The notes beneath the pieces were generated by a model. The model did not search any database. It was given only the letters and a program-made list of their open reading frames with translations, and had not been told where the DNA came from. Positions 181 through 49,520 of a stretch of 64,000 nt of DNA are shown here, one piece after another. The stretch's first letter is position 1. Each line of letters opens with the position of its first letter. The stretch lies in assembly GCF_026891035.1 (NCBI RefSeq), contig NZ_JAPTGG010000008.1, positions 157,497 through 221,496 of the forward strand, given 5' to 3'. This stretch comes from Dasania phycosphaerae (GTDB taxonomy: Bacteria; Pseudomonadota; Gammaproteobacteria; Pseudomonadales; Dasaniaceae). A program made the translations under genes and the position numbers.

Positions 181-1065
181 ATGCCTAAAGCTAAAGCGAA
201 GAAAAAGCCTGCTGCGAAGAAACGCGTTGCAGCAAAAAAAGCACCAGCTAAAACTGTTGTCAGCCCTATGGTTGCGAAAGCACAAGAGGCTATAGATAAG
301 CTGAATAAATCCATTGCTGCCGAGCAGAAAAGCCAGTCTGCTTTACAGAAGAAAGCGGCAGCTGCTAAGAAGAAGGCAGCCAAATCAGGTAAGGCTGCAG
401 ATAAAAACGCTGCTAAGCGTGCCAGGGCAGCTACGGCTAAAGCCGCTGCTAAAATCAAAGCTTTGCGCGATAAGTCGGCTGATGCCAAGCTTAGGCTGAC
501 TAAAGCCAAGTCAGACGCTAAGGCTAAAGCCGCGGCAGCAGCTGTAGAAGCTACCCTAGCTAGCCGTGCGGCAGCGGCAGCGGCAGCGGATAATGCGGCT
601 CTAGCCAAAGCCGTTAAAGCCTTTGAAGCCAATTGGCTGAAGAAGCGTGCTGCAGCTAATAAGAAGAAGTTAGCCGCATTAGCTAAAAAGCTAAAAGCCA
701 AGGCCGCCGCAGCAGCTAAGAAAGAAGCTGCTAAGGTAGCCACAGCGGAGCGTAAAGCCGCCGCTAAAGCTAAAGCCGCCGCTAAAAAGGCAGCAGCCAA
801 AGCCAAAGCAGCGGAGCGCAAAGCTGCAGCCAAGGCCAAAGCCGCCGAGCGCAAGGCAGCAGCAAAAGCCAAGGCAGCAGCTAAAAAAGCCGCCGCTAAA
901 GCGAAAAAGAAAGCTGCACCTAAGAAAAAGGCTGCCAAGAAAAAAGCAGCCCCTAAGAAAAAGGCCGCTGCTAAGAAAAAAGCAGCTCCCAAGAAAAAGG
1001 CCGTCGCTAAGAAAAAACCAGCCAAGAAAAAGGCTGCTAAGCGTAAAGCCGCTAAGAAAAAGTAA
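181..1065 (+). CDS. Lys/Ala-rich histone H1-like nucleoid protein (AlgP/AlgR3-like); low-complexity AKKAAAK / KKAAPKKK repeats
   Basis: 294-aa ORF almost entirely A/K with repeated AAKAKAAERKAAAK and KKKAAPKKKAA units, typical of bacterial histone-H1-like/AlgP proteins; AT-rich A-tract promoter region upstream and a terminator immediately downstream. Confidence 0.8.
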   Translation: MPKAKAKKKPAAKKRVAAKKAPAKTVVSPMVAKAQEAIDKLNKSIAAEQKSQSALQKKAAAAKKKAAKSGKAADKNAAKRARAATAKAAAKIKALRDKSADAKLRLTKAKSDAKAKAAAAAVEATLASRAAAAAAADNAALAKAVKAFEANWLKKRAAANKKKLAALAKKLKAKAAAAAKKEAAKVATAERKAAAKAKAAAKKAAAKAKAAERKAAAKAKAAERKAAAKAKAAAKKAAAKAKKKAAPKKKAAKKKAAPKKKAAAKKKAAPKKKAVAKKKPAKKKAAKRKAAKKK

Positions 1066-1806: not shown

Positions 1807-3738
1807 GTGAAAAATTCTACAGATTATTCCTCGCTGCTAGGTGAGCATGGGCTGTTTGCTCAGCAGCTTAGTGATTTCGTTGATAGGCCCGGCCAGCTGC
1901 AAATGGCTGAACAGGTGGGCACGGCCATTAGCCAGCAACAAAACTGCGCGATAGAGGCACCATCGGGGCTAGGTAAAACCTGGGGCTATTTGATACCGGC
2001 GTTACTTAGCGGTAAAAAAACACTAATATCTACTGCAGGTCACTACCTACAAAAACAATTGTACTTACGCGATATTCCGCAAGTGCAGCAGTGTTTAGGC
2101 TTAAGTCGTTCAGTCGCTTTATTAAAAGGCCGCAGCAATTATTTATGCCCCTATTACCTAAAAAAACATATACAGGCTGCTGCTAAAAGTACAGCAGGGC
2201 AGATACGGCAAAGCCAACTTAGCCATATTTACCAGCAGCTACGTGAAACCGGCCAGGGTGATATCAGCGCTCTGGGGCTAGCTAGTGATTTGCGGCCTTA
2301 TTTAACCTGCGCCGCTGAAGAGTGCTTGGCCCAGCGCTGCCCTGATTTTAAAGCCTGCCCTTTATATAGAGCCCGCAGCCGTGCTGAACATGCTGATGTG
2401 GTAATCGTTAACCACAGTTTATTGCTGAGTTATGAAAATACCTCTGGCAATGCCTTAATCGCCCAGGCTGACACGGTGGTGGTGGACGAGGCGCACCGTT
2501 TATTGGCCTTGGCGCAGCAATCGGCCGGGCACAGCCTAAGCAGCCGACAGTTGCGGCAATTTATTCGGCAGCTGCTAAATACTTGTCAGCGTTGCACCGC
2601 TGAAGATGCTACGATTTTGCGTTACCTCAGCCAATTACAGCAGTGGTTACAGGCGTTAACATTACCCCCGGCTATCCCGTATCAGCGCGAGGCCCACCTA
2701 CATGTAGTACAGCAATTTATCCAAGTGTTTAAGCAGCTGCTCCCCTGGTTTAATATCGCCAAAGAGCGCGATCATCAATTAACTTTACTGGCGACGCAGG
2801 CGCAGTTGTTGTATCAAACCTTGCAGGCCATAGTCAGTGCTGAAGGGCTGTGCTGGGTGCAAAAGCAGGGCCGGGGCTTTGTACTGCAAAATACACCCGT
2901 GCATGTTTTAGATAAACTGAAAAAAACCATAGCGGCCTACCCACAGCACAGCTGGATACTCACTTCGGCAACTCTGTCTACCGGAACCGAACAGGCAGCG
3001 TTAGCAAGCGAAACCGTATTGCGGCGTACTGGCCTAACCCCACAGCAGTTTCACCGTTTAGCCAGCCCTTTTAATTATGCGCGGCAGGCACGTTTATATT
3101 TGCCCGCCATGCACAACAGCCCTGAACAAAAGGATTTTTACCAAGAGTTTAGTCAGCGCTTGGCTGAGTTTATAGCCCTATGTCCCGGTCGTGTATTAGT
3201 GTTGTTTAGCAGTTACCGGGCATTAAATAGTGTGGCTGAACAATTAGAGCTCGCTGAAAGGTCGCTGTTACAGCAGGCTAGACCCCAACAGGGAGGCGCT
3301 GATAATTACGCGCTACTAAAACAATTTATCGCCTTACCACAGGGCGTATTACTGGCCACTGGCGCTTTCTGGGAGGGGGTAGATTTATCGGGTGCGCCTT
3401 TATCGGCGGTGGTGATGGATAAACTGCCTTTTAGCTCGCCCACCGATCCTCTGAGTAAGTTGCGTAGCCATTATTTACAGCAGCACGGGGTGGATAGTTT
3501 TAATGAGTTTATGCTGCCCGAGGCGATTATTAAATTCCGTCAAGGTTGCGGCAGATTATTGCGGCGAGAAGGGGATAAGGGCGTTATAATGCTGGCCGAC
3601 AACAGGCTGCATACTAAGCCCTACGGTCAGCGTTTTTTAGAGACTTTAGCCAGCCTGCCGCAGTGTCAAAGCTTAGATCAGCTTGCCGCGTTTTTTAATG
3701 AACCAACGCCTAAACAATCAGCACGAATGAATTTATGA
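1807..3738 (+). CDS. ATP-dependent DNA helicase, DinG/YoaA (Rad3-like) family
   Basis: 643 aa with GLGKT Walker A, DEAH box (VVVDEAHRL) and the C-terminal helicase motifs typical of DinG/YoaA; GTG start. Confidence 0.85.
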   Translation: MKNSTDYSSLLGEHGLFAQQLSDFVDRPGQLQMAEQVGTAISQQQNCAIEAPSGLGKTWGYLIPALLSGKKTLISTAGHYLQKQLYLRDIPQVQQCLGLSRSVALLKGRSNYLCPYYLKKHIQAAAKSTAGQIRQSQLSHIYQQLRETGQGDISALGLASDLRPYLTCAAEECLAQRCPDFKACPLYRARSRAEHADVVIVNHSLLLSYENTSGNALIAQADTVVVDEAHRLLALAQQSAGHSLSSRQLRQFIRQLLNTCQRCTAEDATILRYLSQLQQWLQALTLPPAIPYQREAHLHVVQQFIQVFKQLLPWFNIAKERDHQLTLLATQAQLLYQTLQAIVSAEGLCWVQKQGRGFVLQNTPVHVLDKLKKTIAAYPQHSWILTSATLSTGTEQAALASETVLRRTGLTPQQFHRLASPFNYARQARLYLPAMHNSPEQKDFYQEFSQRLAEFIALCPGRVLVLFSSYRALNSVAEQLELAERSLLQQARPQQGGADNYALLKQFIALPQGVLLATGAFWEGVDLSGAPLSAVVMDKLPFSSPTDPLSKLRSHYLQQHGVDSFNEFMLPEAIIKFRQGCGRLLRREGDKGVIMLADNRLHTKPYGQRFLETLASLPQCQSLDQLAAFFNEPTPKQSARMNL

Positions 3739-9312: not shown

Positions 9313-10212
9313 ATGATAAACAGACCATTAGTTATAATATTAGCGCCTCACGCTCAGGCCGAAGCGCTAATGACAGATAAACTCGAAGATGAGTTTCATC
9401 TACTCAATGCTGAAACCATGGATGAGTTACTAGCCTTAGTCGGTGAAAGAAAACGCGTAGAAATGCTTCTGGTTTATACCGAAAGTTTGGCCGCCGATTG
9501 TGCGCAACTGCGTGCCAATGAGCAGTTGCGTGGCCTGCCTATTTTAGCTGTGGGCCGTTATGGCTCAGAGCAAATGCAGGATGAAGCTATTACCGCAGGT
9601 GCTATAGATTACATAGATGTAGGTAATGTTAGCGCTACTGTTTTAGAGGCTAGGGTGCGTTCCCTATATGAGCTAAAAGCCCGCGGTGATCAGCTAGCTG
9701 AAATTGCCCGGCTGGATGCGCTTACCGCTGTACCCAATCGCTATTACTTTGAAGAGGCCATAGATGTAGAGTGGCGCCGTTGTTGCCGCGAATTTAATGC
9801 CCTTACTTTAATTATGATAGATGTTGATGGTTTCACCGCTTTTAACGAGCATTACGGTGCTGGCGTGGGTGACAATTGTTTAAAGCGCATAGCCAAAGTG
9901 GTAGAAAATAACTGCCTGCGTGCCGCCGATGTGGTAGCGCGTTTTGATAGCGATGAGTTTGTGGTGCTATTGCCAGGCACAGAGTTTGAAAACGCGATGC
10001 GGGTAGGTGAAAATATTTGCCGTGCGGTAGCGGCTTTAGACTTAATACACGAATACTCCGATTGCTCAGATATCGTTACTGTAAGCATAGGAGTGGCTTC
10101 TATAGATCCTAGCCAGGATCAAGATTACAAATTGCTAGTCAATGAAGCTGAGGAAATGCTGCACAGCGCCCAACAACACGGCGGTAATCAGGCGTTGGGC
10201 GTAGCCTTATAA
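9313..10212 (+). CDS. Pseudo-receiver + degenerate GGDEF domain protein (A-site DSDEF instead of GG[DE]EF, I-site RAAD retained)
   Basis: 299 aa; GGDEF fold recognisable (LDALTAVPNRYYFEE ... IMIDVDGFTAFNEHYGAGVGD ... RAADVVARFDSDEFVVLLPGT) but with a non-canonical active-site motif; N-terminal REC-like domain lacks the usual phospho-acceptor Asp context. Confidence 0.75.
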   Translation: MINRPLVIILAPHAQAEALMTDKLEDEFHLLNAETMDELLALVGERKRVEMLLVYTESLAADCAQLRANEQLRGLPILAVGRYGSEQMQDEAITAGAIDYIDVGNVSATVLEARVRSLYELKARGDQLAEIARLDALTAVPNRYYFEEAIDVEWRRCCREFNALTLIMIDVDGFTAFNEHYGAGVGDNCLKRIAKVVENNCLRAADVVARFDSDEFVVLLPGTEFENAMRVGENICRAVAALDLIHEYSDCSDIVTVSIGVASIDPSQDQDYKLLVNEAEEMLHSAQQHGGNQALGVAL

Positions 10213-31399: not shown

Positions 31400-31564
31400 T
31401 TAGGATTATTTGTGAATAGTTTTCTGCTAGTCATGCCCGCAATAGCGGGCATCCAATTATGAGCGCTATTAATTTACATCCATATTTAAACTTATCATTA
31501 ATGCCTGTAAATAGCGCTTGTTAGCCAGTTAAAGATCATAGTCTAGGTGTTAGGCATTGTGCGT

Positions 31565-32437
31565 TTATTTTTTGCCCCTAATATCCATAATTGGCATCGC
31601 GCCATCCCCCATCATTGTTGAGGGCAGCTTGCCATCCCAGGCTTGTGCCTCGGTTAGTTTTACGATTAAAGGGTTATTTTTTAGCGCTTTGGCTTTAGCC
31701 TCTATGGCTTGCGCCTCGGCCTTACCTTTCAGCAATATGGATTGCGCTTCAGCTTCGGCCACTTTTAATATGCCCTTGGCTTTGGCATCGGCGGTGTTAA
31801 CTGCTCGTAGCGCTTCTAGGCGCTGGCGCTCGAGTTTATGCTCTTCCGCTGCGGCTAAATTCTTTTCAGTTTGTTTGATTTCTATAGAGTTAATGTATTT
31901 TTGAGGCAATACAATATTTTCTATTTGTATATTATCCACTACCACAGGGAAACCGCCCATTTCCTCGGCTAAGCGCCGCTCTATACCTTGTATGGCTGAG
32001 GCTCTATCTTGTATTAGTTGTTCGGCTTCAAATTGGGGGATGGTATCTTTGGTGGCTGAGCGGAATCTTGGATCCAAGATGCGTTGCTCAAACTGAGTAA
32101 GGCCACCGTATTTTTTAAATAGATCCAGTGCTGCTTCTTTATTAACGGTCCAGTTTACTGAGACCTCAATGGTGACTGGCATTTGCTCTTTAGTGCTAGA
32201 GGCCATTTTTTCAGCATTTTTTCTGGTTCGTACCTCAATCATTTCTACTGTTTCAATGAAGGGGATTTTAAAGTGCAGGCCTGGGTTTTCTTGATGCATG
32301 GCCTCACCAAAACGTTTAATCACACCCACATGGCCTTCAATAACAATATAATAGGAATTGAGTACGGCAATAATGGCTAATACTAAAGGTATGGCTTTGG
32401 CGGCATTAAGCGCAGTGAGTTTTTCTTTGATGTTCAT
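31565..32437 (-). CDS. SPFH/band-7 (prohibitin/HflC-like) membrane protein
   Basis: 290 aa; N-terminal TM then band-7 domain and Ala/Lys/Glu coiled-coil C-terminus. Confidence 0.8.
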   Translation of the reverse strand: MNIKEKLTALNAAKAIPLVLAIIAVLNSYYIVIEGHVGVIKRFGEAMHQENPGLHFKIPFIETVEMIEVRTRKNAEKMASSTKEQMPVTIEVSVNWTVNKEAALDLFKKYGGLTQFEQRILDPRFRSATKDTIPQFEAEQLIQDRASAIQGIERRLAEEMGGFPVVVDNIQIENIVLPQKYINSIEIKQTEKNLAAAEEHKLERQRLEALRAVNTADAKAKGILKVAEAEAQSILLKGKAEAQAIEAKAKALKNNPLIVKLTEAQAWDGKLPSTMMGDGAMPIMDIRGKK

Positions 32438-32704
32438 AGCTGTCCTTGTGGTTTGTATGTAGTTGCTTTATTTAAAAGCCATTTTGCAGGTCGTATTTAG
32501 ATGGTTTATTAAATCATTCCATGGTGTGCTGTTTAGGCTATTAATATTTTAGGTAAAACTTTTATATCAGCCTTGATGAAATTTAGCCACGAAAAATAAT
32601 GTGAATATTACCGAGCTGGCCTTTGCTTAAAGGCTGCAGTGGCTGGATGCTAAATCAAGTTCAGCATGACGGGCTGCAATTAATATGGCGCTATAGCAGA
32701 AACA

Positions 32705-38109: not shown

Positions 38110-39126
<1,017 letters not shown>

Positions 39127-39148: not shown

Positions 39149-39175
39149 AAGCCGCACATGTTGCGGCTTTTTTAT
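39149..39175 (+). terminator. Rho-independent terminator after cysB
   Basis: gccgca-catgt-tgcggc stem followed by TTTTTTAT. Confidence 0.8.
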
Positions 39176-39219
39176 GTGCAGCTAAAAACCGTCCGCTGCT
39201 TGTGCATCGTGCAAACCAG

Positions 39220-39650
39220 CCAGCAGTCACTCCAAACTTGATTTGGGGTCCATGGCCAGTGTGCGTATTAGAGCGACACTTAATAGATTCCGGCTAAAGA
39301 CATGCCGGAATGACGGGATGGAAATAACAGCTTGGTGCACAGTCTGTCAGCACATCTCCCCAAACTTGATTTGGGGTCCATAGACTAAGTAGGTGTTTGG
39401 AGTGGCGCTTAATAGATTCCGGCTAAGGACATACCGGAATGACGGGATTGAAATAACAGCTTGGTGCACAGTCTGTCAGCACATCTCCCCAAACTTGATT
39501 TGGGGTCCATAGACTAAGTAGGTGTTTGGAGTAGCGCTTAATAGATTCCGGCTAAGGACATACCGGAATGACGGGATTGAAATAACAGCTTGGTGCACAG
39601 TCCGTCAGCACATCTCCCCAAACTTGATTTGGGGTCCATAAGCTGTGGCA
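39220..39650. repeat. Tandem array A of a ~129-bp structured repeat (about 3.4 units)
   Basis: Units recur with period 128-130 bp (hairpin ccccaaacttgatttgggg at 39357, 39487, 39616; first unit degenerate); units 2 and 3 differ at only two positions; each unit carries two conserved hairpins (ccccaaa-cttga-tttgggg and attccgg-ctaaggacata-ccggaat). Confidence 0.9.
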
Positions 39651-39796
39651 ATAGCAGCGACTGAGGGAGTTGAGCCCAAGCTATATCTTAAGCAACGAGC
39701 TATGGGCTATTTACCTGGCCTCAGGCCATAGCTGAGTTGCAGCAGGGGTGGTAGAATCAGCGCCTTTTACAGCCATGCAAGCCTTTAGGAGTCCAC

Positions 39797-40414
39797 GTGG
39801 AAATAGCCTGTTTAGATTTGGAAGGGGTATTAATCCCTGAGATTTGGATTAACTTTGCCGAAAAAACCGGCATAGAAGAACTCAAAGCCACAACCCGAGA
39901 TGTACCCGATTACGATGTATTAATGAAACAACGTTTACGCATCTTAAACGAGCACGGTTATGGCTTGCCCGATATACAGGCGGTAATCAGCGAATTATCT
40001 CCTATGGAAGGGGCTGCAGAGTTTTTAAACTGGCTGCGTGAGCGTTTTCAAGTGGTAATTTTATCCGACACCTTTTACGAATTCGGTATGCCCTTTATGA
40101 AGCAGCTGGGTTACCCCACCTTGTTGTGTCACAAGCTAGAGGTGGATGAAAACGGCAAGGTTACCGACTACAAACTGCGCCAGGCCAACCCCAAGCGCCA
40201 AGCCGTAATAGGTTTTCACTCCATGTACTATCGCACCATAGCGACTGGTGACTCTTACAACGACACCGCCATGTTAGCCGAAGCCGATGCTGGTATTTTA
40301 TTTAAATCACCGGACAATGTGATTGCTGAGTTCCCACAGTACCCAGCCGTACATACTTACGAAGATTTGAAAAAAGAATTTATCAAAGCCAGTAATCGCG
40401 ACCTTAGCCTGTAA
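39797..40414 (+). CDS. thrH: HAD-family phosphoserine phosphatase / homoserine phosphotransferase ThrH
   Basis: 205 aa, same length as P. aeruginosa ThrH and collinear pattern (MEIACLDLEGVL.PEIWI.FAEKTGI..L.ATTRD.PDYDVLMKQRL); GTG start; flanked on both sides by the tandem repeat arrays. Confidence 0.85.
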   Translation: MEIACLDLEGVLIPEIWINFAEKTGIEELKATTRDVPDYDVLMKQRLRILNEHGYGLPDIQAVISELSPMEGAAEFLNWLRERFQVVILSDTFYEFGMPFMKQLGYPTLLCHKLEVDENGKVTDYKLRQANPKRQAVIGFHSMYYRTIATGDSYNDTAMLAEADAGILFKSPDNVIAEFPQYPAVHTYEDLKKEFIKASNRDLSL

Positions 40415-40436
40415 TAAGCTAGGTTAAGACGAAATA

Positions 40437-40474
40437 AAACGGCGCACTCATCACCATGGGGCGCCGTTTTTTTA
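40437..40474 (+). terminator. Rho-independent terminator after thrH
   Basis: aacggcgc ... gcgccgtt stem followed by TTTTTTTAT. Confidence 0.75.
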
Positions 40475-40496
40475 TGGGGTTGCGATTAGCAGTACA

Positions 40497-40806
40497 ACCC
40501 CGCAGCACGTCACCCCAAACTTGATTTGTGGTCCAAAGGCCGCGCAGGCTTGTACTTGGGCGCTAATGGATTCCGGCTAACAGCATACCGGAATGACGAG
40601 TGGCGAATAAATGAATGCTTCAGTCATCAATAAGTAAAAATGAAAAGGCGTTGCGGCCAACAAACCGCGACAGTGACAGAACCGTAGCACCACCCCCGCA
40701 GCACGTCACCCCAAACTTGATTTGGGGTCCATAGGCTACGCAGGCTTGTACTTCGGCGTTAATAGATTACGGCTAAGGGCATGCCGGAATGACGAAGCGT
40801 CATGGC
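40497..40806. repeat. Array B: two copies of the same structured repeat family separated by ~90 bp
   Basis: Two units containing gtcaccccaaacttgattt(g/t)gggtcca and (g)attccggctaa-cagcat/gggcat-(a/g)ccggaatgacg at ~40502-40600 and ~40696-40805. Confidence 0.85.
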
Positions 40807-41012
40807 TCTAGACGAAGCATACAGTGCCAGCGCCCAAGAAACATGATCAACAAAGCCATGTATTAGCGCTATAAAAACACCAGTAATTACGGTTAAAATC
40901 CGTCGTGCTGATATCGGGTCGTTAATAACAGCCCTGCACACTAAGCAGCATTACACAATAATTGATTATTCATATAGTCACCAACAAGCTAAGCAAGCGG
41001 GCACAAAACCTT

Positions 41013-42293
41013 ATGTATAAACTACTAAAAACACCCGGCGCCATTTTTTATGTGCTTGCTTTATTTCTTAATGCCTTTATAGATTTAGGCCATAAAATCA
41101 TTATTCAAAACACCCTGTTTAAAGCCTACGATGGCCAAGAGCAGGTGATATACACCGCTATAGTCAATGCCCTGATTCTTTTGCCATTTATTTTATTGCT
41201 GTCGCCAGTAGGCTTTATTGCTGATAAATACCCCAAACATCAAGTGATGCGTTTCTCGGCATGGCTGGCTGTGGTGGTGACTTTATTTATCACAGCTTGT
41301 TATTACCTGGGCTGGTTTTGGCAGGCCTTCGCCTTAACGTTTGTGTTGGCTATACAGTCGGCATTTTATTCGCCGGCAAAATACGGTTACATCAAATTTT
41401 TATTTGGGGTAGAGCGCTTGGTGCCGGGCAACGGTTTAGTGCAGGCGGTCACTATAGTTGCCATTTTAGCGGGTACCGTGGTGTACTCTTTGTTTTTTGA
41501 AATGCTTTATCCCGCTGGCGTAGTCGACCCAAAAGTGATTTTACAACATATAGCGGTTATCGGCTGGTTGCTGGTGATTAATGCCATTTTTGAGCTAATC
41601 ATGACGTATAAGCTGCCACAGTTAGAGCAGGGCGACCCTGAAAAAACCTTCCCCGTTAAAGCTTATCTGCAAGGCCGGTTAATGCGCCAGCTGGCTGCAC
41701 TGGTTTGCAAAAAATCGATTATCATCTGGGCTATTATTGGCCTGGCTTTATTTTGGTCGGTGGGGCAGGTGATGCTGGCGGCGTTCCCTGCCTATGCCAA
41801 GGCGCAGTACGGGGTAAGCAATACCTTAGTCATACAAGCGGTATTAGGTTGTGCCGGTTTAGGTATAGTGTTGGGCTCGTGGCTAGCGGCAAAATTATCG
41901 ATCAATCAAATACGCATAGTTTTAATCCCTATAGGTGCTATAGGGGTGGCGCTATGCCTCAGCGTATTAACCTTTGCCGGCTCTATAGTTTTATCCGCTG
42001 TATTATTTGTCGGTGTCGGCGCTATGGGCGGTTTAATGATTGCGCCACTTAATGCGCTGATACAATTTCACAGCCAAGAGCATGAGCTGGGCCACGTGCT
42101 GGCCATGAATAACTGGCTGCAAAACGTCGCCATGGCCAGCTTTTTAGGCTTAACTGTCTGGTTTGCTGTGCAGGGCTATAGCAGTGAGTTGTTATTGCAG
42201 TTGATTGCTATATTGGCTTTGCTGGCTAGTACTTTGCTATTGTTTTATTTCTTTTATAAAAATAACAAGCAGCGTGTACAGCGAAAGCAATAG
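41013..42293 (+). CDS. MFS transporter (12-TM; possibly lysophospholipid-transporter LplT-like)
   Basis: ~426 aa from MYKLLKTPGAIFYVLALFLNAF; MFS hydrophobicity pattern; family assignment tentative. Confidence 0.7.
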   Translation: MYKLLKTPGAIFYVLALFLNAFIDLGHKIIIQNTLFKAYDGQEQVIYTAIVNALILLPFILLLSPVGFIADKYPKHQVMRFSAWLAVVVTLFITACYYLGWFWQAFALTFVLAIQSAFYSPAKYGYIKFLFGVERLVPGNGLVQAVTIVAILAGTVVYSLFFEMLYPAGVVDPKVILQHIAVIGWLLVINAIFELIMTYKLPQLEQGDPEKTFPVKAYLQGRLMRQLAALVCKKSIIIWAIIGLALFWSVGQVMLAAFPAYAKAQYGVSNTLVIQAVLGCAGLGIVLGSWLAAKLSINQIRIVLIPIGAIGVALCLSVLTFAGSIVLSAVLFVGVGAMGGLMIAPLNALIQFHSQEHELGHVLAMNNWLQNVAMASFLGLTVWFAVQGYSSELLLQLIAILALLASTLLLFYFFYKNNKQRVQRKQ

Positions 42294-42331
42294 GCTGATG
42301 TTTTTATATCCCTAGCCCCAAACTTTACGCT

Positions 42332-44947
42332 TTAGCCTTGCCCCGTGAGTTGAAAGGCCGCCCAGTAAAAAGGGTGGTTGTTGCTACTGTTTATCATTTG
42401 CTGCTGTGCACTGCGCAGAGCCTGGCCGTAGTTTTGCTGGCTAATCCCTTGATAAAATAAATTCATAAGTTGTTGGGTGCCGCTGTCGTCTACTTTCCAT
42501 AGGCTGGCGATAATGTTGTCGCTGCCGGCGTATAAAAAGCCGCGGGTTAAACCTATGACTTCGTCACCGTTGGCCAAGCTGCCCAGGCCGGTTTCGCAGG
42601 CGGATAGCACAACTAGGCTGGCGTTGAGTTGTAGTTGGTAAACCTCACCCATAGTTAGTTCGCCATCATTGCTGGCGTCTTTGGCTAACAGCAGGCGTGA
42701 TTGCTGAGCCCGGCGGCTGTTAAATTCGCCATGTGAGGCTATGTGTAAAATACCGTATTGCTGGCCTTGTTGTTTGAGCAGGGTTTCTGTTGCCTGTTGT
42801 TGGGTCACTATAGCGCTGTTATTGATGAGTGTAGCGATGCGTTTAACCTCTTGCTCGGCACCGGGCAAATCTACGGTGGGGTTGCCCATAGCTAATAGGG
42901 AGTGCTGCTTGTTAGCGCTATCACGGTTGAGGAATGCCGCCACACTGGCGCTGGGTAGGTGGCTAATAGCCCTTTGTTCAATCAAAAACTGTTGGCCGCT
43001 GTGTAGCGAGGCAAAGGGTAGGTAGTGCAAAGCGCCACTGGCAACGATGGTGAGTTCGGCGTGATCGTTTAATTGTAGCGGGCTAATAAGCTCTTGATAG
43101 AGTTGCTGCGAGAGTTGCTTATAGCGCTGGCTGTTTTTATTTTGTAATTGTTTTCTATAGTCGCTAATGCGTAAGTTTAGTTGTGCCGCATTAAGCTTAA
43201 GCGTTTGTATGTTATTAGCGGTGACTTTAAAGGCATACCATTGGTCATCTAATTCAAGATATTCCACCAACACTTGTGTAGGGCTGAGTAAGGCTTGCAG
43301 CTCTTGTGCGTTAAAAGGCGTAACGGTGGTTAGTGATTGGGTTTCTATTTGTTTGATAGCGGCACGATCGCGGCGGCTATTTTTTAAACCGCGTAGGCCA
43401 GTACTGGTAGCGGCAGTGGCTGCGGGCTGCGGGTTAAAAGCTAGCGGCGCTAGGCTAATGCTGTTGGGCAGTTGTTCGCGTCGGGCTTGGCTGTCGGCTA
43501 GCATATCTACTAACGCGCGGCTGCGTGCGCGCTCAGCCGTTACAAAGGCTTGCTCATCGCGGCCTAGTTTTATAAGCAGGGCTATGGCGCGTTGATAGGC
43601 GCTGGCTTTGTCGCCAACAAAACCAATTTTTTGAGATTCTACCGAGATATTGCCACGGCTATTTTCTACTAGCTGCATGGCCAGTTCATAAGCCTGTAAG
43701 GCGGCGGCTAGTTGCCCTTGCTGCTCAAGGGCATAGCCTTTTTGGTAGGCGCTTAACCAGCGGATTTCGCTAAAGGAGGCGCTATCTCCATCGTTAAGGA
43801 TATTGTTGGCGTGTTTTAGGCTCAGTGCCCAATCTTTATTGTTAGCGGCAATGAGTGCTAATTGTAACTGCTCCCTAAACTGTAAGCCGGTAAACAGCCG
43901 TTCGGTCAGCGCGTCTAAACCATAGTTTGCGCTAAACCCCGCCATTTTGGCGAAAGCCCCGTTGCTATTAAAACCGCTTAGGGCTGTGACAAAGTCACCT
44001 ACTGCCAGCACGGCGCTGCTGCCCACTGCGAAATAGCCCATTAGGGTTTGGCCTATTTCGCTGGCGCTTATTGTCATGGGGCGCATGTGTTGATAGTCAC
44101 CCAGTTCAAACAATACGGTGTTGAGGTAATACTGCCTGGCCCGCTGAAAGCTGTTGTGTATATCGCCGCCATCGCTGGTTTTGTGTAGCCGAGTAATTGT
44201 TTTTATATGTTCGGCGGCTAGTTGCGGGCGACCTAAACGAATTTCACTTTGGGCCGCTAGCGTGGCGCTCATTAATATATCGTAGGACCAGTGAAATTTT
44301 TCATTGCCGCCGGGCAGGGCATAATCATCGCTGCTGCGTTTGCCTTGATTATCGGGCTGAGGGCCGCCAGCGTATACATACATAAAACTTAAATCGCTGC
44401 GCTGGCTAGGGGCCTGCCATTGTTGTTCGCCCAACTCATAATAATTTTTTAAAGCGCTGTTGGCGTGGTCTAGCGCCTGTGTATATTGCCCTAATTGAAA
44501 CCAGGCTTCAGCCAATAGGCGATGCTTGCGGGCTTCCACCTCTTGTGGAAATAGCGCGGTGGTATAGGGTGTTTCGGCAATTAAGGGCTGGCCGGCACGG
44601 GCATAGCTGGCGTACTCAGGGTATTGATTATGTTTGCGCATAAGGCCTAGGGTGAGGGCGAAAGAGCTGCGTTGCCACACCGCCATGCAATCATAAAACT
44701 GGCTGTAGTGGCCTAGGCTTAAATGGGCGTGGCACAGTGCATCTAAGCGGGTAATTTGGTCTGATAAATCGCGGGGCTGATAGCGTTGGGTTAAAGCCTG
44801 TAATTGCCCTTCATAATGTAACTCAGTGGGGGCCATCATGGCCTCGTCTGTGTCATCACTTAATAATGCCGGGTAGGGTGCGGCTAAGCTGACCGAGGCG
44901 GCAGTCAATAGAGGTAAAAATGAGGCTAACAACAGGGCTTTTTTCAT
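42332..44947 (-). CDS. Exported TPR-repeat CHAT-domain (caspase-like) protease
   Basis: 871 aa; cleavable signal peptide (MKKALLLASFLPLLTAASVSLAAP), central TPR-like helical repeats, C-terminal CHAT domain with His/Cys dyad context (ILHIASHGEF ... LVVLSACETG); start overlaps upstream lipoprotein gene (ATGA). Confidence 0.85.
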   Translation of the reverse strand: MKKALLLASFLPLLTAASVSLAAPYPALLSDDTDEAMMAPTELHYEGQLQALTQRYQPRDLSDQITRLDALCHAHLSLGHYSQFYDCMAVWQRSSFALTLGLMRKHNQYPEYASYARAGQPLIAETPYTTALFPQEVEARKHRLLAEAWFQLGQYTQALDHANSALKNYYELGEQQWQAPSQRSDLSFMYVYAGGPQPDNQGKRSSDDYALPGGNEKFHWSYDILMSATLAAQSEIRLGRPQLAAEHIKTITRLHKTSDGGDIHNSFQRARQYYLNTVLFELGDYQHMRPMTISASEIGQTLMGYFAVGSSAVLAVGDFVTALSGFNSNGAFAKMAGFSANYGLDALTERLFTGLQFREQLQLALIAANNKDWALSLKHANNILNDGDSASFSEIRWLSAYQKGYALEQQGQLAAALQAYELAMQLVENSRGNISVESQKIGFVGDKASAYQRAIALLIKLGRDEQAFVTAERARSRALVDMLADSQARREQLPNSISLAPLAFNPQPAATAATSTGLRGLKNSRRDRAAIKQIETQSLTTVTPFNAQELQALLSPTQVLVEYLELDDQWYAFKVTANNIQTLKLNAAQLNLRISDYRKQLQNKNSQRYKQLSQQLYQELISPLQLNDHAELTIVASGALHYLPFASLHSGQQFLIEQRAISHLPSASVAAFLNRDSANKQHSLLAMGNPTVDLPGAEQEVKRIATLINNSAIVTQQQATETLLKQQGQQYGILHIASHGEFNSRRAQQSRLLLAKDASNDGELTMGEVYQLQLNASLVVLSACETGLGSLANGDEVIGLTRGFLYAGSDNIIASLWKVDDSGTQQLMNLFYQGISQQNYGQALRSAQQQMINSSNNHPFYWAAFQLTGQG

Positions 44948-45525
44948 AGGGCTGCACTCACGCTAACAATTTTCTCAATCACGGCGTCTATAAAATTGGT
45001 TTTATTACGTACGCTGTTAATGGCAAAGAGGTTATTAATCTTTAACTCATCATCCATTGCGGTTAATTGCATGCGTTCTTCATGGCTAAAGGTTTTTTGC
45101 TGCTGTGCTTTGCTTAGTGTTATATCGCCAGCAATAACAATATCCGCTGTAGAAAAAGTGACTAAGGCTTTGAGTTCGCTAGTGATAGTGTCGCTAACAC
45201 GGTTTAGTTTTATGTGTAGGCTTTGCCATTGACAATCACTGTTGCTATTAATAGCTATACGGCCATCATGCTGTAGGTATTTTATAAACTGCTGCTTAAT
45301 CACGGAGTCCAAATGCTGGTGGCTGCTATCTATAAAAACGGGATCGCTAACACTTAGCTGAAACTGGCACACCTTAATAGCAGTTGCATTCGGGTGGGGC
45401 TGTGGCGCCATTAGGCCTATATGTTGTTGATAATAATTAAAATCAACGCAGCCGCTAAGTGCGCTGACTAATATTAGATAGCTACATAGACGGCTTAATG
45501 AATAGCGGGAAATAAGAGTTAACAT
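44944..45525 (-). CDS. Lipoprotein of unknown function (193 aa)
   Basis: Lipobox LSG-C after hydrophobic leader; translationally coupled to the CHAT gene. Confidence 0.65.
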   Translation of the reverse strand: MLTLISRYSLSRLCSYLILVSALSGCVDFNYYQQHIGLMAPQPHPNATAIKVCQFQLSVSDPVFIDSSHQHLDSVIKQQFIKYLQHDGRIAINSNSDCQWQSLHIKLNRVSDTITSELKALVTFSTADIVIAGDITLSKAQQQKTFSHEERMQLTAMDDELKINNLFAINSVRNKTNFIDAVIEKIVSVSAAL

Positions 45526-45576
45526 AGTAGAAGCCTAAGTATGAGGGTAGTTAACATAGCTATGGAATGAAACTGC

Positions 45577-47013
45577 TTAGCGACGCTGAGTAGTAAACAG
45601 TAGTACCGCTTCTGTGGCTGTACTCAGCTCTTGGCTGCTGGTTTTTTTCTTTTTTAAACCACGGGTTTGCATTACCGCCTGATTAATATTGTGGGATAGC
45701 ACATAGTACTCACTGCTGGGTTCATAGTTATAGCTGGGTAATTGATTAACCATGTCGCTGCGGCTGGCAATGACTTGTAAGCTTTCTACACCATAGGGTG
45801 GGGAAACAATAAAACTGCCTATAGAAACCCATTTATTTACTTCATCGGCATTCACATAGTAAACAAAGCGGCGATCGCCTTGGGCCTCGTTAATATCGAT
45901 CAGATAAGAGAGCTCGTTTTGTCCATTTTTAGTGTGGCCTACTACATAAAAATAGCCGGGCTTGTTCACTTTAATCAGTATTTCTATTTCTTCTCCATCT
46001 ACAAACAGCAATTGCCTTTGGCCCTTGTTGGTGGCTACTTGTACATTAAAATCGCTGGCTACTGCATAGCCTGCGTGTAATAGGCGGTCAAAGTCTGGCG
46101 CTATAGGTTTGGTGGCTAAATGTTGATAACTACTGGGTGCCAGCTGTGCCAAGCGACTGCTAATAATATTACCTTGGGTATCACTAAGCGTGTAATTAAC
46201 GCTAATACCTTGATCGTTAATTTGATATTCACCATTAAAAATATAGCGTGCTTGCTCTAGGTTATTGGCGCGCGCAAGTCGTTGGTTAATTTCTGTTAGC
46301 AGGGCGGCGGCAAAGGGGGTTATTTCCCTAGAGTGTTTTAAGGTGGCAGGCTGTGCATAGACCTGCCCCTGTGTTATTCCCTTGGTGAGTAGCTTGGCCG
46401 CTAGGCTTAAGCTAGGGGCGGCGGCCTCTAATTGCGCTAGCTGTAACTTAAGCTGCTGCGGGCTAATGCTGATAGGGGCGGGATGGTTTTGCGGGCTGAG
46501 ATAGAGCAAAACCGTGGCAAACTGCTCATAGCGCTGGTAATCGGCCAATAGCTTGAGTAGCTGGGGGTAGTGCTGCGTGCGGGGTATATTGGCTAAGGCC
46601 GCGTATTGTTGCTGAATTTGTTGGGCTAGCTGCTGGGTTTTAGCATGATACAAGCCGCTGGCTACTTGGCTGTCCATGTTGGCTTGGCATAGCTGGCCTT
46701 CGGGGCTGGGGTAGCAATCTAGCTCCACCCCTATCATGGGTAGGTTGCTGCTGCTGTGGCTGCTACTGCTAAAGTTGCTGGCACCGCTGCTGTCTTCTTG
46801 TAGCGTAGAGCTGCTTTCTATTTGCACAAAAATACTGCTGGCTAAGGCGCTAAGCGCTGCGTTTTTGGCGCTGGCTTCATCGCTGCCATAAGCTTGGGCG
46901 CTGAGTGTGCGAGCTTGGCTAAGGCTGTGGCAGGCGAGGATAAGGATTAGGCTAATGAGTGCTTTGCTAAAGCTGGGGCGGTTATGCGAAGTAATACGGC
47001 TAAACATCATCAT
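45577..47013 (-). CDS. Exported (lipobox ILAC) protein with Ser-rich linker and beta-rich C-terminal domain (DUF4384-like by recollection)
   Basis: 478 aa; first gene of the three-gene CHAT operon; C-terminal block QRQLLFVDGEEIEILIKVNKPGYFYVVGHTKNGQ...RFVYYVNADE resembles the domain family commonly fused/linked to CHAT/caspase proteins. Confidence 0.6.
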   Translation of the reverse strand: MMMFSRITSHNRPSFSKALISLILILACHSLSQARTLSAQAYGSDEASAKNAALSALASSIFVQIESSSTLQEDSSGASNFSSSSHSSSNLPMIGVELDCYPSPEGQLCQANMDSQVASGLYHAKTQQLAQQIQQQYAALANIPRTQHYPQLLKLLADYQRYEQFATVLLYLSPQNHPAPISISPQQLKLQLAQLEAAAPSLSLAAKLLTKGITQGQVYAQPATLKHSREITPFAAALLTEINQRLARANNLEQARYIFNGEYQINDQGISVNYTLSDTQGNIISSRLAQLAPSSYQHLATKPIAPDFDRLLHAGYAVASDFNVQVATNKGQRQLLFVDGEEIEILIKVNKPGYFYVVGHTKNGQNELSYLIDINEAQGDRRFVYYVNADEVNKWVSIGSFIVSPPYGVESLQVIASRSDMVNQLPSYNYEPSSEYYVLSHNINQAVMQTRGLKKKKTSSQELSTATEAVLLFTTQRR

Positions 47014-47150
47014 TCCATAAAAATGCCAAGGCTTAGGTGTTGCGCTGGCTGGTTATTATTCCTATACAGCTTAGCGTATTAATGGCGCTGTATGTTTTTA
47101 AAATAGCTGCGAATGCTCAAAAAACAAACGCCTTGTTATTGCTGGCCAGT

Positions 47151-47942
47151 CTAACGCACTAACTTATCTAGGTGTAACAAAAATAAATTGAATAACTCCG
47201 CCTGTGTGTTGATGTCTAGGCGTTCATAAATATTTTTTCTATGCACCTTCACTGTCGAGGGGCTGATATCCAAAGCCTTAGCCAGTGACTTGGAAGAGTG
47301 GCCCTGTAATATCAGTTGCGCTACCTGTTGCTCTCGTGGGGTTAGTTGTTCACTGCAAAAATTTTCAAAGGCGCTAGCTACTGGTGAGTGATCATTACTG
47401 TGCAGGGGGGGCTGTAGTGCATAAAACTGTTGCACCACAGCATTCAATAGCGGTGTGGTGGCGGCCAAACTGTTGAGGTTGTCACGGGTAAAAACCTCGT
47501 GGTGGTTACGGCGAGCTAGTGATATCACTAGGCTACTTTGTTGATCTACAGGTATAAAAATACCAAGTTCATCGGCTAGGTCCAGATCACGATAGTAAAG
47601 CTGAAAATACTCTGTGTCTTCAAAATTATCGGGGGCAAAGTCATCCAGATGATAAATACCATTAAGCTGTGGCTGTTTTATTAACTCGCTATAAAAAGGG
47701 TCTAATAAATATAGCCCTTGGGTGTATTTAATGACTGCCTTATGCCGCTTGGGGTTGGGGTAGTCATCGTAGAGTAGACTGGGTGCTTGTTGTGTTGAGT
47801 AAAGCAAAACAATGGCAGTATCAAACACTAACCACTGCTGAATAGCGTTAACCAGCTCGCCGGCCATATTGGGGGCTTGCTGGCTGAGTAAAGCCTGTGC
47901 CATGTGCTGGTGCCATTGTTGTAGTGCTGCAAGGTCGGGCAT
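47151..47942 (-). CDS. LuxR-family transcriptional regulator (C-terminal HTH)
   Basis: 263 aa; C-terminal LTPREQQVAQLILQGHSSKSLAKALDISPSTVKVHRKNIYERL LuxR/FixJ HTH; N-terminal domain of unknown type; directly upstream of the CHAT operon, divergent from aguB. Confidence 0.8.
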   Translation of the reverse strand: MPDLAALQQWHQHMAQALLSQQAPNMAGELVNAIQQWLVFDTAIVLLYSTQQAPSLLYDDYPNPKRHKAVIKYTQGLYLLDPFYSELIKQPQLNGIYHLDDFAPDNFEDTEYFQLYYRDLDLADELGIFIPVDQQSSLVISLARRNHHEVFTRDNLNSLAATTPLLNAVVQQFYALQPPLHSNDHSPVASAFENFCSEQLTPREQQVAQLILQGHSSKSLAKALDISPSTVKVHRKNIYERLDINTQAELFNLFLLHLDKLVR

Positions 47943-48132
47943 GGTTAACTCGATAGCGTTGAGGCTGCAAGGGCTTAGGCCTTGCTGTTATTTGGGTGTT
48001 ATTTTGTGGATACGGCTGTTTAAGCTGCAATACTGGCTAAATAAATTTGTAACCGTACCCCTATGGGACTATTCACCCAGCTTAAACCACTTTGTATAGT
48101 TATTTCAAATTGGTTTTATAGAGGTCATGCCA

Positions 48133-49031
48133 TGAGAGAAGTAACCGTAGCAGCAACCCAAATGACGGTAAGTTGGGATTTAGATGATAATGTTAATAAG
48201 GCTGAGCGTTTAATACGCGAAGCTGCCGCGAAAGGCGCTAATATAATTCTGATTCAGGAATTATTTGAAGCACCCTATTTTTGTATAGAGCAAGATGCAA
48301 AGCATTTTAAATTAGCGACCAGTTTAGAAGAAAACACCAACATCAAACGGTTTCAAGCCTTAGCCAAAGAGCTAAATGTGGTTTTGCCCTTTAGCTGGTT
48401 TGAAAAAGCGGGTAAGGCATTTTTTAACTCTATGGCAATGATAGATGCCGATGGCAGTATCTTAGGGGTATACCGTAAATCACATATACCCAATGGCCCC
48501 GGTTATCAAGAGAAGCAATACTTCAACCCCGGCGATACCGGTTTTAAAGTATGGGATACCCAGTTCGCGAAAGTGGGTGTGGGTATATGCTGGGATCAGT
48601 GGTTCCCCGAGTCGGCCCGCTGCATGGCCTTATTAGGTGCAGAAATTTTAATGTATCCTACGGCCATAGGTTCAGAGCCGCCACCAGCGCCACCGTTGGA
48701 TTCTCGCTATCACTGGCAACGGGTAATGCAAGGCCATGCCGGTGCTAACATCATGCCTTTAGTTGCCTCTAATCGCATAGGTATTGAGCGCGCTACTCAA
48801 GATGACAATTATGCCATTACCTTTTATGGCTCATCTTTTATCGCTGATTACACGGGCGAGAAAGTACAAGAGGCTAACGACAGCGATGAGACGGTATTGG
48901 TGCATACCTTTGATTTAGACGCTGTAGCCGAATATCGAGAAAGCTGGGGTGTTTACCGAGATAGACGTCCTGAGTTATATCAACCTATAGCGACTTTAGA
49001 TGGTCAGTTGCCACACCATGCTAGAAAATAA
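48133..49031 (+). CDS. aguB: N-carbamoylputrescine amidase (CN-hydrolase)
   Basis: ~299 aa from MREVTVAATQMTVSWDLD; collinear with P. aeruginosa AguB opening (TVATTQM.CSWDLD.N...AERL.REAAA.GA..IL.QELF..PYFCIEQD). Confidence 0.85.
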
Positions 49032-49051
49032 TTAGTTCCCCTTATATAAAT

Positions 49052-49086
49052 AACGGTCACATAGCTTGTGGCCGTTTTTTGGTTTT
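49052..49086 (+). terminator. Rho-independent terminator after aguB
   Basis: cggtcaca-tagct-tgtggccg stem followed by TTTTTTGGTTTT. Confidence 0.75.
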
Positions 49087-49520
49087 GGGATGATGGATTC
49101 CGGCTAACAGCCTGCCGGAATGACGGGGTGATGTTGGCTTACGAGTACGTCACCCCAAACTTGATTTGGGGTCCATGGGTGCCTAGGTATGCACAGCGGT
49201 GTTGATGGATTCCGGCTAACAGTCTGCCTGAATGACGGGGTGATATTGGAGTGCGGGTACGTCACCCCAAACTTGATTTGGGGTCCATGGGTGCCTAGGT
49301 ATGCGCAGCGGTGTTGATGGATTCCGGCTAACAGCCTGCCTGAATGACGGGGTGATATTGGAGTGCGGGTACGTCACCCCAAACTTGATTTGGGGTCCAT
49401 AGGTTACGTAGGTATGCACAGCGGTGTTGATGGATTCCGGCTAACAGCGTACCGGAATGACGGGGTGATGTTGGATTGAGGGTACGTCACCCCAAATTTG
49501 ATTTGGGGTCCATGGGTGAC
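49087..49520. repeat. Tandem array C of the same structured repeat family (4 units, period ~111-113 bp)
   Basis: gtcaccccaaa(c/t)ttgatttggggtcca recurs at 49152, 49263, 49375, 49488 with conserved gattccggctaacag(c/t)(c/g)t(g/a)cc(g/t)gaatgacggggtga between them. Confidence 0.9.

Follow-up and report, generated by a model that had tools for sequence, protein, structure and literature searches.

The 64,000-nt window analyzed here (the whole stretch from position 157,497 to 221,496 of contig NZ_JAPTGG010000008.1) comes from the marine gammaproteobacterium Dasania phycosphaerae, has a GC content of 47.9%, and carries clusters of short palindromic repeats at three intergenic loci, termed arrays A, B, and C. 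With a probability that we put at roughly 70%, these repeats are local pile-ups of an already described class of hairpin, the CGTC-tagged REP superfamily, also known as Ssn-related motifs (SRM), arranged as head-to-head heterodimers. The class itself is known, and what is new here are the stem types, the host, and an unusual periodic amplification.

Anatomy of the repeat arrays

Two hairpin sequences, H1 and H2, recur in all three arrays. The H1 core CCCCAAACTTGATTTGGGG was found ten times in the window with at most one mismatch, every copy lying on the + strand, against an expectation of 0.06, and the H2 pattern ATTCCGG-N11-CCGGAATGAC was found nine times, also on the + strand, against an expectation of 0.04. 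Tandem Repeats Finder delimited array A at 39232-39640 (period 129, 3.2 copies, score 697) and array C at 49091-49518 (period 112, 3.8 copies, score 721). The repeat clusters that a preliminary description of this DNA had reported at three intergenic loci are therefore real. On the + strand, H1 has the layout CGTC-ACCCCAAA-CTTGA-TTTGGGGT-CCA, and H2, when read on the − strand, has the layout CGTC-ATTCCGG-(9-11 nt loop)-CCGGAAT-CCA. Because this order of tag, stem, loop, and tail is identical once H2 is read on the − strand, H1 and H2 are one type of module in opposite orientations, with their tags facing outward; the preliminary description was correct in that both hairpins recur, but not in treating them as two different elements.

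Eight H1>...<H2 dimers are present, with a tail-to-tail spacer of about 31 nt and 38-40 nt between the stems. Alignment of eight H1-spacer-H2 stretches from the three loci gave a mean column identity of 85%, and the linkers between dimers were specific to each array (40 nt in A, about 108 nt in B, and 25 nt in C). The conserved unit common to the three loci is therefore a head-to-head H1/H2 heterodimer of about 95 nt; the unit of 110-130 bp proposed earlier corresponds to the periods of array A (129) and array C (112-113), but not to this shared element.

In arrays A and C, the dimer has been duplicated in tandem together with its local linker. Array A (39225-39640, + strand) consists of three repeats of H1, a spacer (S1), inverted H2, and linker, followed by a terminal solo H1, with a period of 129. 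Its H1 units lie at 39225-39252, 39353-39380, 39482-39509, and 39611-39638 on the + strand, and its H2 units, with the tag on the − strand, at 39284-39315, 39413-39444, and 39542-39573. Array C (49094-49516, + strand) repeats the order inverted H2, linker, H1, and S1 with a period of 112-113; its H2 units (tag on the − strand) are located at 49094-49125, 49206-49237, 49318-49349, and 49431-49462, and its H1 units (+ strand) at 49148-49175, 49260-49287, 49372-49399, and 49485-49512. The head-to-tail arrangement that had been claimed for every locus holds for these two arrays but not for array B, where two dimers of about 95 nt lie 196 nt apart with the unrelated linker of about 108 nt between them. 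Dimer 1 (40504-40603, + strand) contains H1 at 40508-40535, with one stem mismatch, followed by a spacer and inverted H2 at 40567-40598, and dimer 2 (40700-40799, + strand) contains H1 at 40704-40731, a spacer, and inverted H2 at 40763-40794, the last with one stem mismatch.

The second and third units of array A differ at only 2 of 129 positions (98.4% identical), so that the near identity of adjacent units reported earlier stands for this pair, and the first and second units differ at 31 of 129. Units of array C were identical at 104 of 112 and 107 of 112 positions (93-96%). Spacers recur between copies at 66-98% identity, with much stronger conservation in the hairpin cores. The H2 tag reads CGTC on the − strand in all nine copies; the H1 tag reads CGTC in six of ten copies, AGTC in one, and a degenerate CATC-T in copies 2-4 of array A. 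All H1 copies and the H2 copies of arrays B and C end in a CCA tail, and the H2 copies of array A end in CTA. A stem-breaking substitution was found in four of the 19 hairpins (H2 at 49209, 49321, and 40766, and H1 at 40513). When whole units were folded as single-stranded DNA (ssDNA), the two short hairpins alone were robust and no larger conserved fold was seen; in two of four tests, shuffled sequence folded as well as whole units did (z −0.2 to −3.2).

Assignment to the CGTC-tagged hairpin class

As defined by Di Nocera, De Gregorio and Rocco (2013, BMC Genomics 14:522; PMC3733652), CGTC REPs possess a CGTC or TGTC tag (variant CCTC), a stem of 8-9 bp in which the first two pairs are "almost invariably" A-T and then T-A, a loop of 4-5 nt, with exceptions of other loop lengths mentioned, and a CCA tail. 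Most form head-to-head dimers at distances of 20-100 bp, frequently heterodimers with conserved spacers, located downstream of open reading frames (ORFs) and between unidirectional or convergent genes. They are mostly alphaproteobacterial; Neisseria dRS3 and Rickettsia RPE-4 and RPE-6 are included among them, and they were reported to lack a dedicated transposase (PMC3733652). The window hairpins share the tag, the CCA tail, the head-to-head dimers, and the intergenic position downstream of ORFs. H1 resembles members of the class carrying a CGTC, TGTC, or AGTC tag in its 8-bp stem, 5-nt CTTGA loop, and CCA tail, and its heterodimers, here with spacers of 38-40 nt, are likewise intergenic and downstream of unidirectional or convergent genes. 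Going by the text description of the class, the subgroup CGTC-2 (8-bp stem and 5-nt loop) is the one that H1 resembles. With regard to the stems, H2 (ATTCCGG(C), 7-8 bp) starts with AT as in the definition, and H1 (ACCCCAAA, 8 bp) has A-T as its first pair and C-G as its second. The loop of H1 (5 nt, CTTGA) and that of a single copy at 31427 (4 nt) fall within the stated 4-5 nt, and the H2 loop of 9-11 nt falls outside.

A second line of evidence was provided by the degenerate pattern published for SRM searches, HGTCWYN(0-2)YYVSBRHN(0-5)WNVSBRGN(0-2)RNCYNB (PMC11893778), which matched five of the nine H2 copies on the − strand (0.16 expected) and none of the ten H1 copies. The resemblance to REP-type intergenic repeats noted in the preliminary description was thus right, and its proposal of an "apparently undescribed family" falls because the element belongs to a named class, with modules that agree with the CGTC REP definition (PMC3733652) and H2 copies that fit the SRM pattern (PMC11893778).

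Relatives of H1 in other genomes

The 23-mer CCCCAAAYTTGATTTGGGGTCCA was used as an exact query for H1 against one genome per species, the match set being composed of genomes other than that of the window itself. Matches were obtained at 77 loci in about 14 other marine genomes, mostly of Alphaproteobacteria: Woodsholea maritima, Litorimonas, metagenome-assembled genomes (MAGs) of Maricaulaceae and Caulobacterales, and several Rhodospirillales MAGs, together with a Rickettsiales MAG, a Sphingorhabdus MAG, and one Pseudomonadales MAG. An inverted, tagged partner was present within 170 nt after H1 in 63 of 93 copies, compared with 39 of 385 random positions in the same loci. In these genomes the partner takes the form GGAT-stem-ATCAAGT-stem-ATGAC, and the spacer is variable (median 60 nt). 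A full-text literature search for the H1 sequence found no paper. In W. maritima (loci L001, L005, L008, L011, L025, L033, L068, and others), other palindromic repeats, among them ccacctcccccgc-ttcg-caggggagg and ccgcccgcagcgaagcgagga, regularly stand before H1 and form with it mosaic intergenic clusters comparable to the NIMEs of Neisseria.

Every CTTGA loop with at least five perfect flanking pairs was then collected, yielding 227 hairpins of 30 stem types (about one expected), with flanks kept as GTC...CCA. The covariation that the preliminary description had put forward as a check was found: in an alignment of 28 stem types, seven of the eight stem pairs showed double changes, and 96% of cells were paired, as against 15-51% with a slid partner column, the inner five pairs being perfect by selection and the outer three alone providing an unbiased test. 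The second stem pair was T-A in 19 of these types and C-G in 8.

A covariance model of the 33-nt module, R1, was built from the H1-like units of the other genomes. Within the window it recovered all H1 copies, the nine H2 copies on the − strand (E-values 3e-5 to 0.65), and two more single copies (31427-31458, + strand, and 32641-32673, − strand), so that elements are present at all three loci named earlier, with two further copies of the same class outside them. In the related loci (575 kb), R1 identified 330 copies.

Association with small GIY-YIG nuclease genes

A partner gene was sought with no prior assumption by clustering all ORFs in the H1 loci. Small GIY-YIG genes (PF01541) were found adjoining H1 in four genomes. 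At locus L038 such a gene lies between two inverted H1 copies, and at locus L060, from a Rhodospirillales MAG, it lies between H1 and the usual inverted partner. The L060 arrangement is a periodic array on the − strand (about 340-965) in which one head-to-head dimer carries the GIY-YIG gene instead of the short spacer and the adjacent empty dimer has an identical 31-nt linker, placing full and empty versions of the element side by side.

A metagenome scan with these GIY-YIG proteins gave 80 loci, in which R1 units occurred at 7.3 per kb within 100 nt of the GIY-YIG gene and at 0.23 per kb elsewhere. In 35 of 80 cases (44%) the gene was bracketed, with a + unit on its upstream side and a − unit on its downstream side, and at least one unit was nearby in 58 of 80 (72%). 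For published Ssn homologs, the motif is nearby in 71% and flanks both sides in 42% (PMC11893778); the association of gene and repeat is thus already published, and is here re-derived independently with close figures.

Ssn is a family of single-domain GIY-YIG nucleases of about 94-95 aa (Chenal et al. 2025, Nat Commun 16:2388; PMC11893778). It binds the hairpin repeat NTS (CGTCATTCCCGCGMAVGCGGGAATCYRG, which contains dRS3) as ssDNA only, cuts a few nucleotides upstream of the tag, and is inactive on duplex DNA, RNA, and the reverse strand (PMC11893778). The target repeats have been generalized as SRM, a Wolbachia Ssn cuts its own SRM, and the system makes DNA in the NTS-gene-NTS configuration less effective in transforming N. 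meningitidis (PMC11893778). As the loop of the Ssn target tolerates extensions (PMC11893778), the 9-11 nt loop of H2 is compatible with Ssn recognition.

Comparison with Dasania marina

The nearest relative of the window is D. marina, with LeuA and ThrH 87% and 97% identical to the D. marina proteins, respectively, and a gene order syntenic with that of D. marina DSM 21967. Array A is absent from D. marina, where the LysR-thrH spacer measures 155 nt and contains the terminator and no hairpin repeat, and array C is likewise absent, the spacer between the CN_hydrolase and thioesterase genes measuring 97 nt with no repeat. At the right edge of array A (39640/39641), homology to D. marina resumes directly after the CCAT tail of the last H1 (aagctgtgg..., locus L160, about position 9926), which places the right insertion edge where a hairpin module ends. 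H1 is missing from the D. marina spacer between thrH and the MFS gene, which is the site of array B, but two H2-type units are present there along with other CGTC units. Because they are absent from the syntenic D. marina sites, arrays A and C must have been gained or enlarged once the two lineages had separated, in agreement with the recent amplification that the preliminary description had proposed from the near identity of units. Three metagenome contigs with a D. marina-like thrH (L162, L163, and L164) all end about 310 nt past thrH, in the repeat region equivalent to array B; evidently, short-read assemblies break at these repeats.

Genomic setting and single copies

The neighboring genes are ordinary ones, encoding a LysR regulator, ThrH, an MFS transporter, a CN_hydrolase, and a thioesterase. 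Those on either side of arrays A and B are unidirectional and those around array C convergent, and all three arrays are located 3' of terminators, as had been stated in the preliminary description; two of the terminator hairpins, at 39149-39169 and 49052-49076, were detected by scan, and the third, before array B at about 40441-40473, by eye. The intrinsic terminator of the LysR-family gene (38152-39126) at 39149-39176 (+ strand; 8-bp stem and T-run) lies about 50 nt upstream of array A and is kept in D. marina, and that of the CN_hydrolase gene (48063-49031) at 49052-49083 (+ strand; 10-bp stem and T-run) lies about 10 nt upstream of array C. After thrH (39797-40414), a terminator-like hairpin with a T-run at 40441-40475 (+ strand; acggcgc...gcgccgttttttt) lies about 30 nt upstream of array B; since the scanner scores loops of up to 8 nt and this loop is longer, the hairpin was left unscored, and it gave a weak terminator-type Rfam alignment.

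The two single copies detected by R1 bracket, with tags outward, an SPFH/Band 7 gene (31565-32437, − strand, 290 aa) situated between rluB-like and purC genes. The copy at 31427-31458 (+ strand) is of another sequence type, AGTC-ATGCCCGC-AATA-GCGGGCAT-CCA, with an 8-bp stem, a 4-nt loop, and a CCA tail (R1 20.8 bits, E=7e-4), and the copy at 32641-32673 (− strand) reads CGTC-ATGCTGAA-CTTGA-TTTAGCAT-CCA, with one G-T pair (R1 37.2 bits, E=6e-9). At the same locus in D. marina (L160, 2693-3348), homologous hairpins bracket an unrelated gene of 97 aa encoding an ABM domain, and the 32641-32673 hairpin has its orthologous copy at 3316-3348. Judged from the two sequences, this locus looks like an exchanged repeat-gene-repeat cassette. 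At all five loci of the window, the strand carrying the H1 tag is the sense strand of the upstream gene.

Between the MFS gene and a LuxR/GerE gene lies an island of three genes (42332-47013, − strand) that is not present there in D. marina and encodes a TPR and CHAT protein (871 aa), a 193-aa protein with no Pfam match, and a DUF4384 protein (478 aa). PADLOC returned a weak BovA-like match alone for this island (E=5.5e-6), which may be of an accessory or defense type. It is not bordered by the hairpin arrays, and the suggestion that the arrays are recombination hotspots assembling an accessory segment was therefore dropped. Elsewhere in the window, an ORF at 181-1065 (+ strand) consists mostly of lysine/alanine-rich repeats (AKKAAAK-type, with DNA periods of 15-36 nt) and resembles proteins of the histone-H1/AlgP type.

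Discussion

Several observations weigh against assigning the arrays to the CGTC-tagged REP/SRM class and its nuclease. H1 lies outside the published SRM pattern, and its second stem pair is C-G rather than the usual T-A; H2 has a loop of 9-11 nt as opposed to the 4-5 nt stated for CGTC REPs; and given the stem-breaking substitutions and the degenerate H1 tags of array A, part of the arrays may be decaying. In the covariation set, only the outer three pairs escape the selection by which the hairpins were collected. No GIY-YIG gene was found within the 64-kb window by ORF clustering or by BLAST of the ORF set. The search for homologs of a related Ssn, in which no Dasania entry appeared among the best 120 of 4381, is uninformative as a test. 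Finally, membership of the flanked GIY-YIG proteins in cd10448 is putative, being based on their size, single domain, and flanking repeats.

Comparison with known systems places the window elements closest to this class while marking their peculiarities. They differ from other CGTC REPs in being hosted by a gammaproteobacterium (Dasania), in the second pair of H1 and the loop of H2, and in the tandem amplification of whole dimers, clusters being called rare in that group. With the NTS/SRM-Ssn system they share an oriented hairpin, a GTC tag upstream, a C after the palindrome, and, for H2, the fit to the SRM pattern; in other genomes small GIY-YIG genes are enclosed by hairpins of the H1 type, and an SRM-gene-SRM arrangement surrounds the SPFH gene in the window. 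Unlike that system, the window contains no ssn gene, H1 is not captured by the degenerate pattern, and Dasania is known here from sequence alone. The dRS3 and NIME elements of Neisseria also have ATTCC...GGAAT palindromes with CGTCA and TCCA flanks (compare ATTCCGG...CCGGAAT in H2), and NIMEs form mosaic intergenic clusters with semi-conserved segments between the repeats and border variable genes; their stem and loop sequences are different, however, and the window arrays are strictly periodic duplications and not mosaics of several RS families. Rickettsia RPE-4 and RPE-6 and Wolbachia CGTC-4 belong to the same CGTC superfamily (PMC3733652), and the Wolbachia copies are clustered, but these elements have other stems and intracellular hosts, and the RPEs are often found inside genes.

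A dimer presents one oriented hairpin per strand, with both tags outward. By analogy with the Neisseria and Wolbachia homologs, for which this is known, a tagged hairpin that becomes single-stranded during replication, transformation, or conjugation would be bound by its cognate Ssn and cut a few nucleotides 5' of the tag, and the Dasania genome would be expected to encode such a nuclease. SRM-ssn-SRM cassettes, of which the empty dimers are probably non-autonomous relatives, may also be their ancestors. The dimers would have settled just downstream of terminators in the Dasania genome, and after the split from D. marina the dimer and its linker were amplified at A and C by tandem duplication, presumably through unequal recombination or slippage. 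A likely consequence, drawn from the same homologs, would be cleavage of incoming or exposed ssDNA at the array sites, and the hairpin pairs may also mark the boundaries of exchangeable gene cassettes, so that the function of the arrays in Dasania would presumably be in ssDNA processing or cassette exchange. Among the roles put forward in the preliminary description, arrays for protein binding or recombination come closest to this, the known binder of the class being a single-strand-specific GIY-YIG nuclease.

A broader reading that joins these observations is tentative, and we consider it improbable as a whole: H1 and its heterologous partner would constitute a distinct Ssn specificity class missed by the SRM pattern, moving horizontally between marine Alpha- and Gammaproteobacteria as SRM-ssn-SRM cassettes; the arrays would grow by nuclease-dependent insertion or repair beside existing copies, not by plain slippage; and the outward-facing pairs would serve as boundaries for the swapping of gene cassettes. 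Were such a class to exist, the SPFH and ABM versions of the same locus in the two Dasania species would be an example of a cassette swap.

The rival explanation that survives best accepts the same element class but regards the elements as orphaned, with no active cognate nuclease, so that the arrays would be decaying selfish or neutral DNA having passive effects only, as homology for recombination or slippage and as local secondary structure 3' of the terminators. We think this unlikely, while noting how much is consistent with it: the broken stems in four of 19 hairpins and the degenerate H1 tag in array A, the lack of a nuclease gene within the window, the possibility raised by others that CGTC families are heading for extinction (PMC3733652), and the finding that 19% of genomes with more than 200 SRMs have no ssn homolog (PMC11893778). 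Decay is harder to reconcile with hairpin cores that are far better conserved than the spacers, and the appearance of arrays A and C after the split, with two units 98.4% identical, points to recent activity, yet duplication itself needs no nuclease.

It is very improbable that the repeats are instead REPIN- or BIME-type elements mobilized by a RAYT (Y1/HUH) transposase. The architecture is shared, in that inverted hairpin pairs with a conserved unpaired tag cluster into mosaics, and in the REPIN/RAYT system and the BIMEs of E. coli it is the inverted doublet that replicates, the same hairpins enclose a nuclease gene present in single copy, and recognition is thought to take place on ssDNA. 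However, the tag is CGTC and not GTAG, CGTC repeats flanked no RAYT gene in the published surveys (PMC3733652), and the gene found bracketed by these hairpins encodes a GIY-YIG nuclease and not a Y1/HUH transposase. BLAST detected no RAYT-like ORF in the window or in the 77 related loci (575 kb), a weak negative given the approximate E. coli RayT query.

Very improbable, too, is the proposal that the units are tandem small RNA genes or act at the RNA level as stabilizers or attenuators in 3' untranslated regions. The position of the elements downstream of genes, with the H1 tag always on the sense strand of the upstream gene, would suit such a role, and many REPs have been argued to be transcribed (PMC3733652). 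All the arrays, however, lie after intrinsic terminators, no promoter-like site was seen in them, and neither hairpin is followed by a T-run, leaving the units with no terminator of their own. The window gave no Rfam match at the gathering threshold, and at E-values up to 10 the window and both array regions gave chance-level matches alone; the same search of 18 related loci found nothing but one tRNA. Stem mismatches show no bias toward wobble pairs, little folding stability is added outside the two short hairpins, with whole units no better than shuffles in half of the tests, and SsnA does not bind the RNA form of the hairpin (PMC11893778). The small RNA genes suggested in the preliminary description are thus unlikely. 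A CRISPR array, integron attC or VCR-like sites, and an assembly duplication artefact, each suggested by short, regularly spaced palindromes, were rejected as practically inconceivable because the sequence itself contradicts them: the spacers are conserved between units (as the preliminary description had argued against CRISPR), no cas or integrase genes are nearby among the LysR, thrH, MFS, and CN_hydrolase neighbors, units within an array have diverged, and independent assemblies of other organisms have the same architecture.

Taken as CGTC-tagged REPs, the arrays would place a described repeat and nuclease system (CGTC REPs and SRM-Ssn) in a cultured marine gammaproteobacterial genus, and, with arrays A and C not found in the sister species, they are a natural case of very recent amplification. 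H1 is abundant and escapes the published SRM pattern despite bracketing ssn-like genes elsewhere, so that counting the motifs in genomes with that pattern gives numbers that are too low. Each new pair of hairpin and nuclease is a candidate for a site-specific ssDNA endonuclease specificity, and it is in such specificities that the biotechnological interest of the Ssn family is stated to lie. The apparent swap of hairpin-bracketed genes between two Dasania genomes offers a testable example of the repeat-gene-repeat arrangement outside Neisseria.

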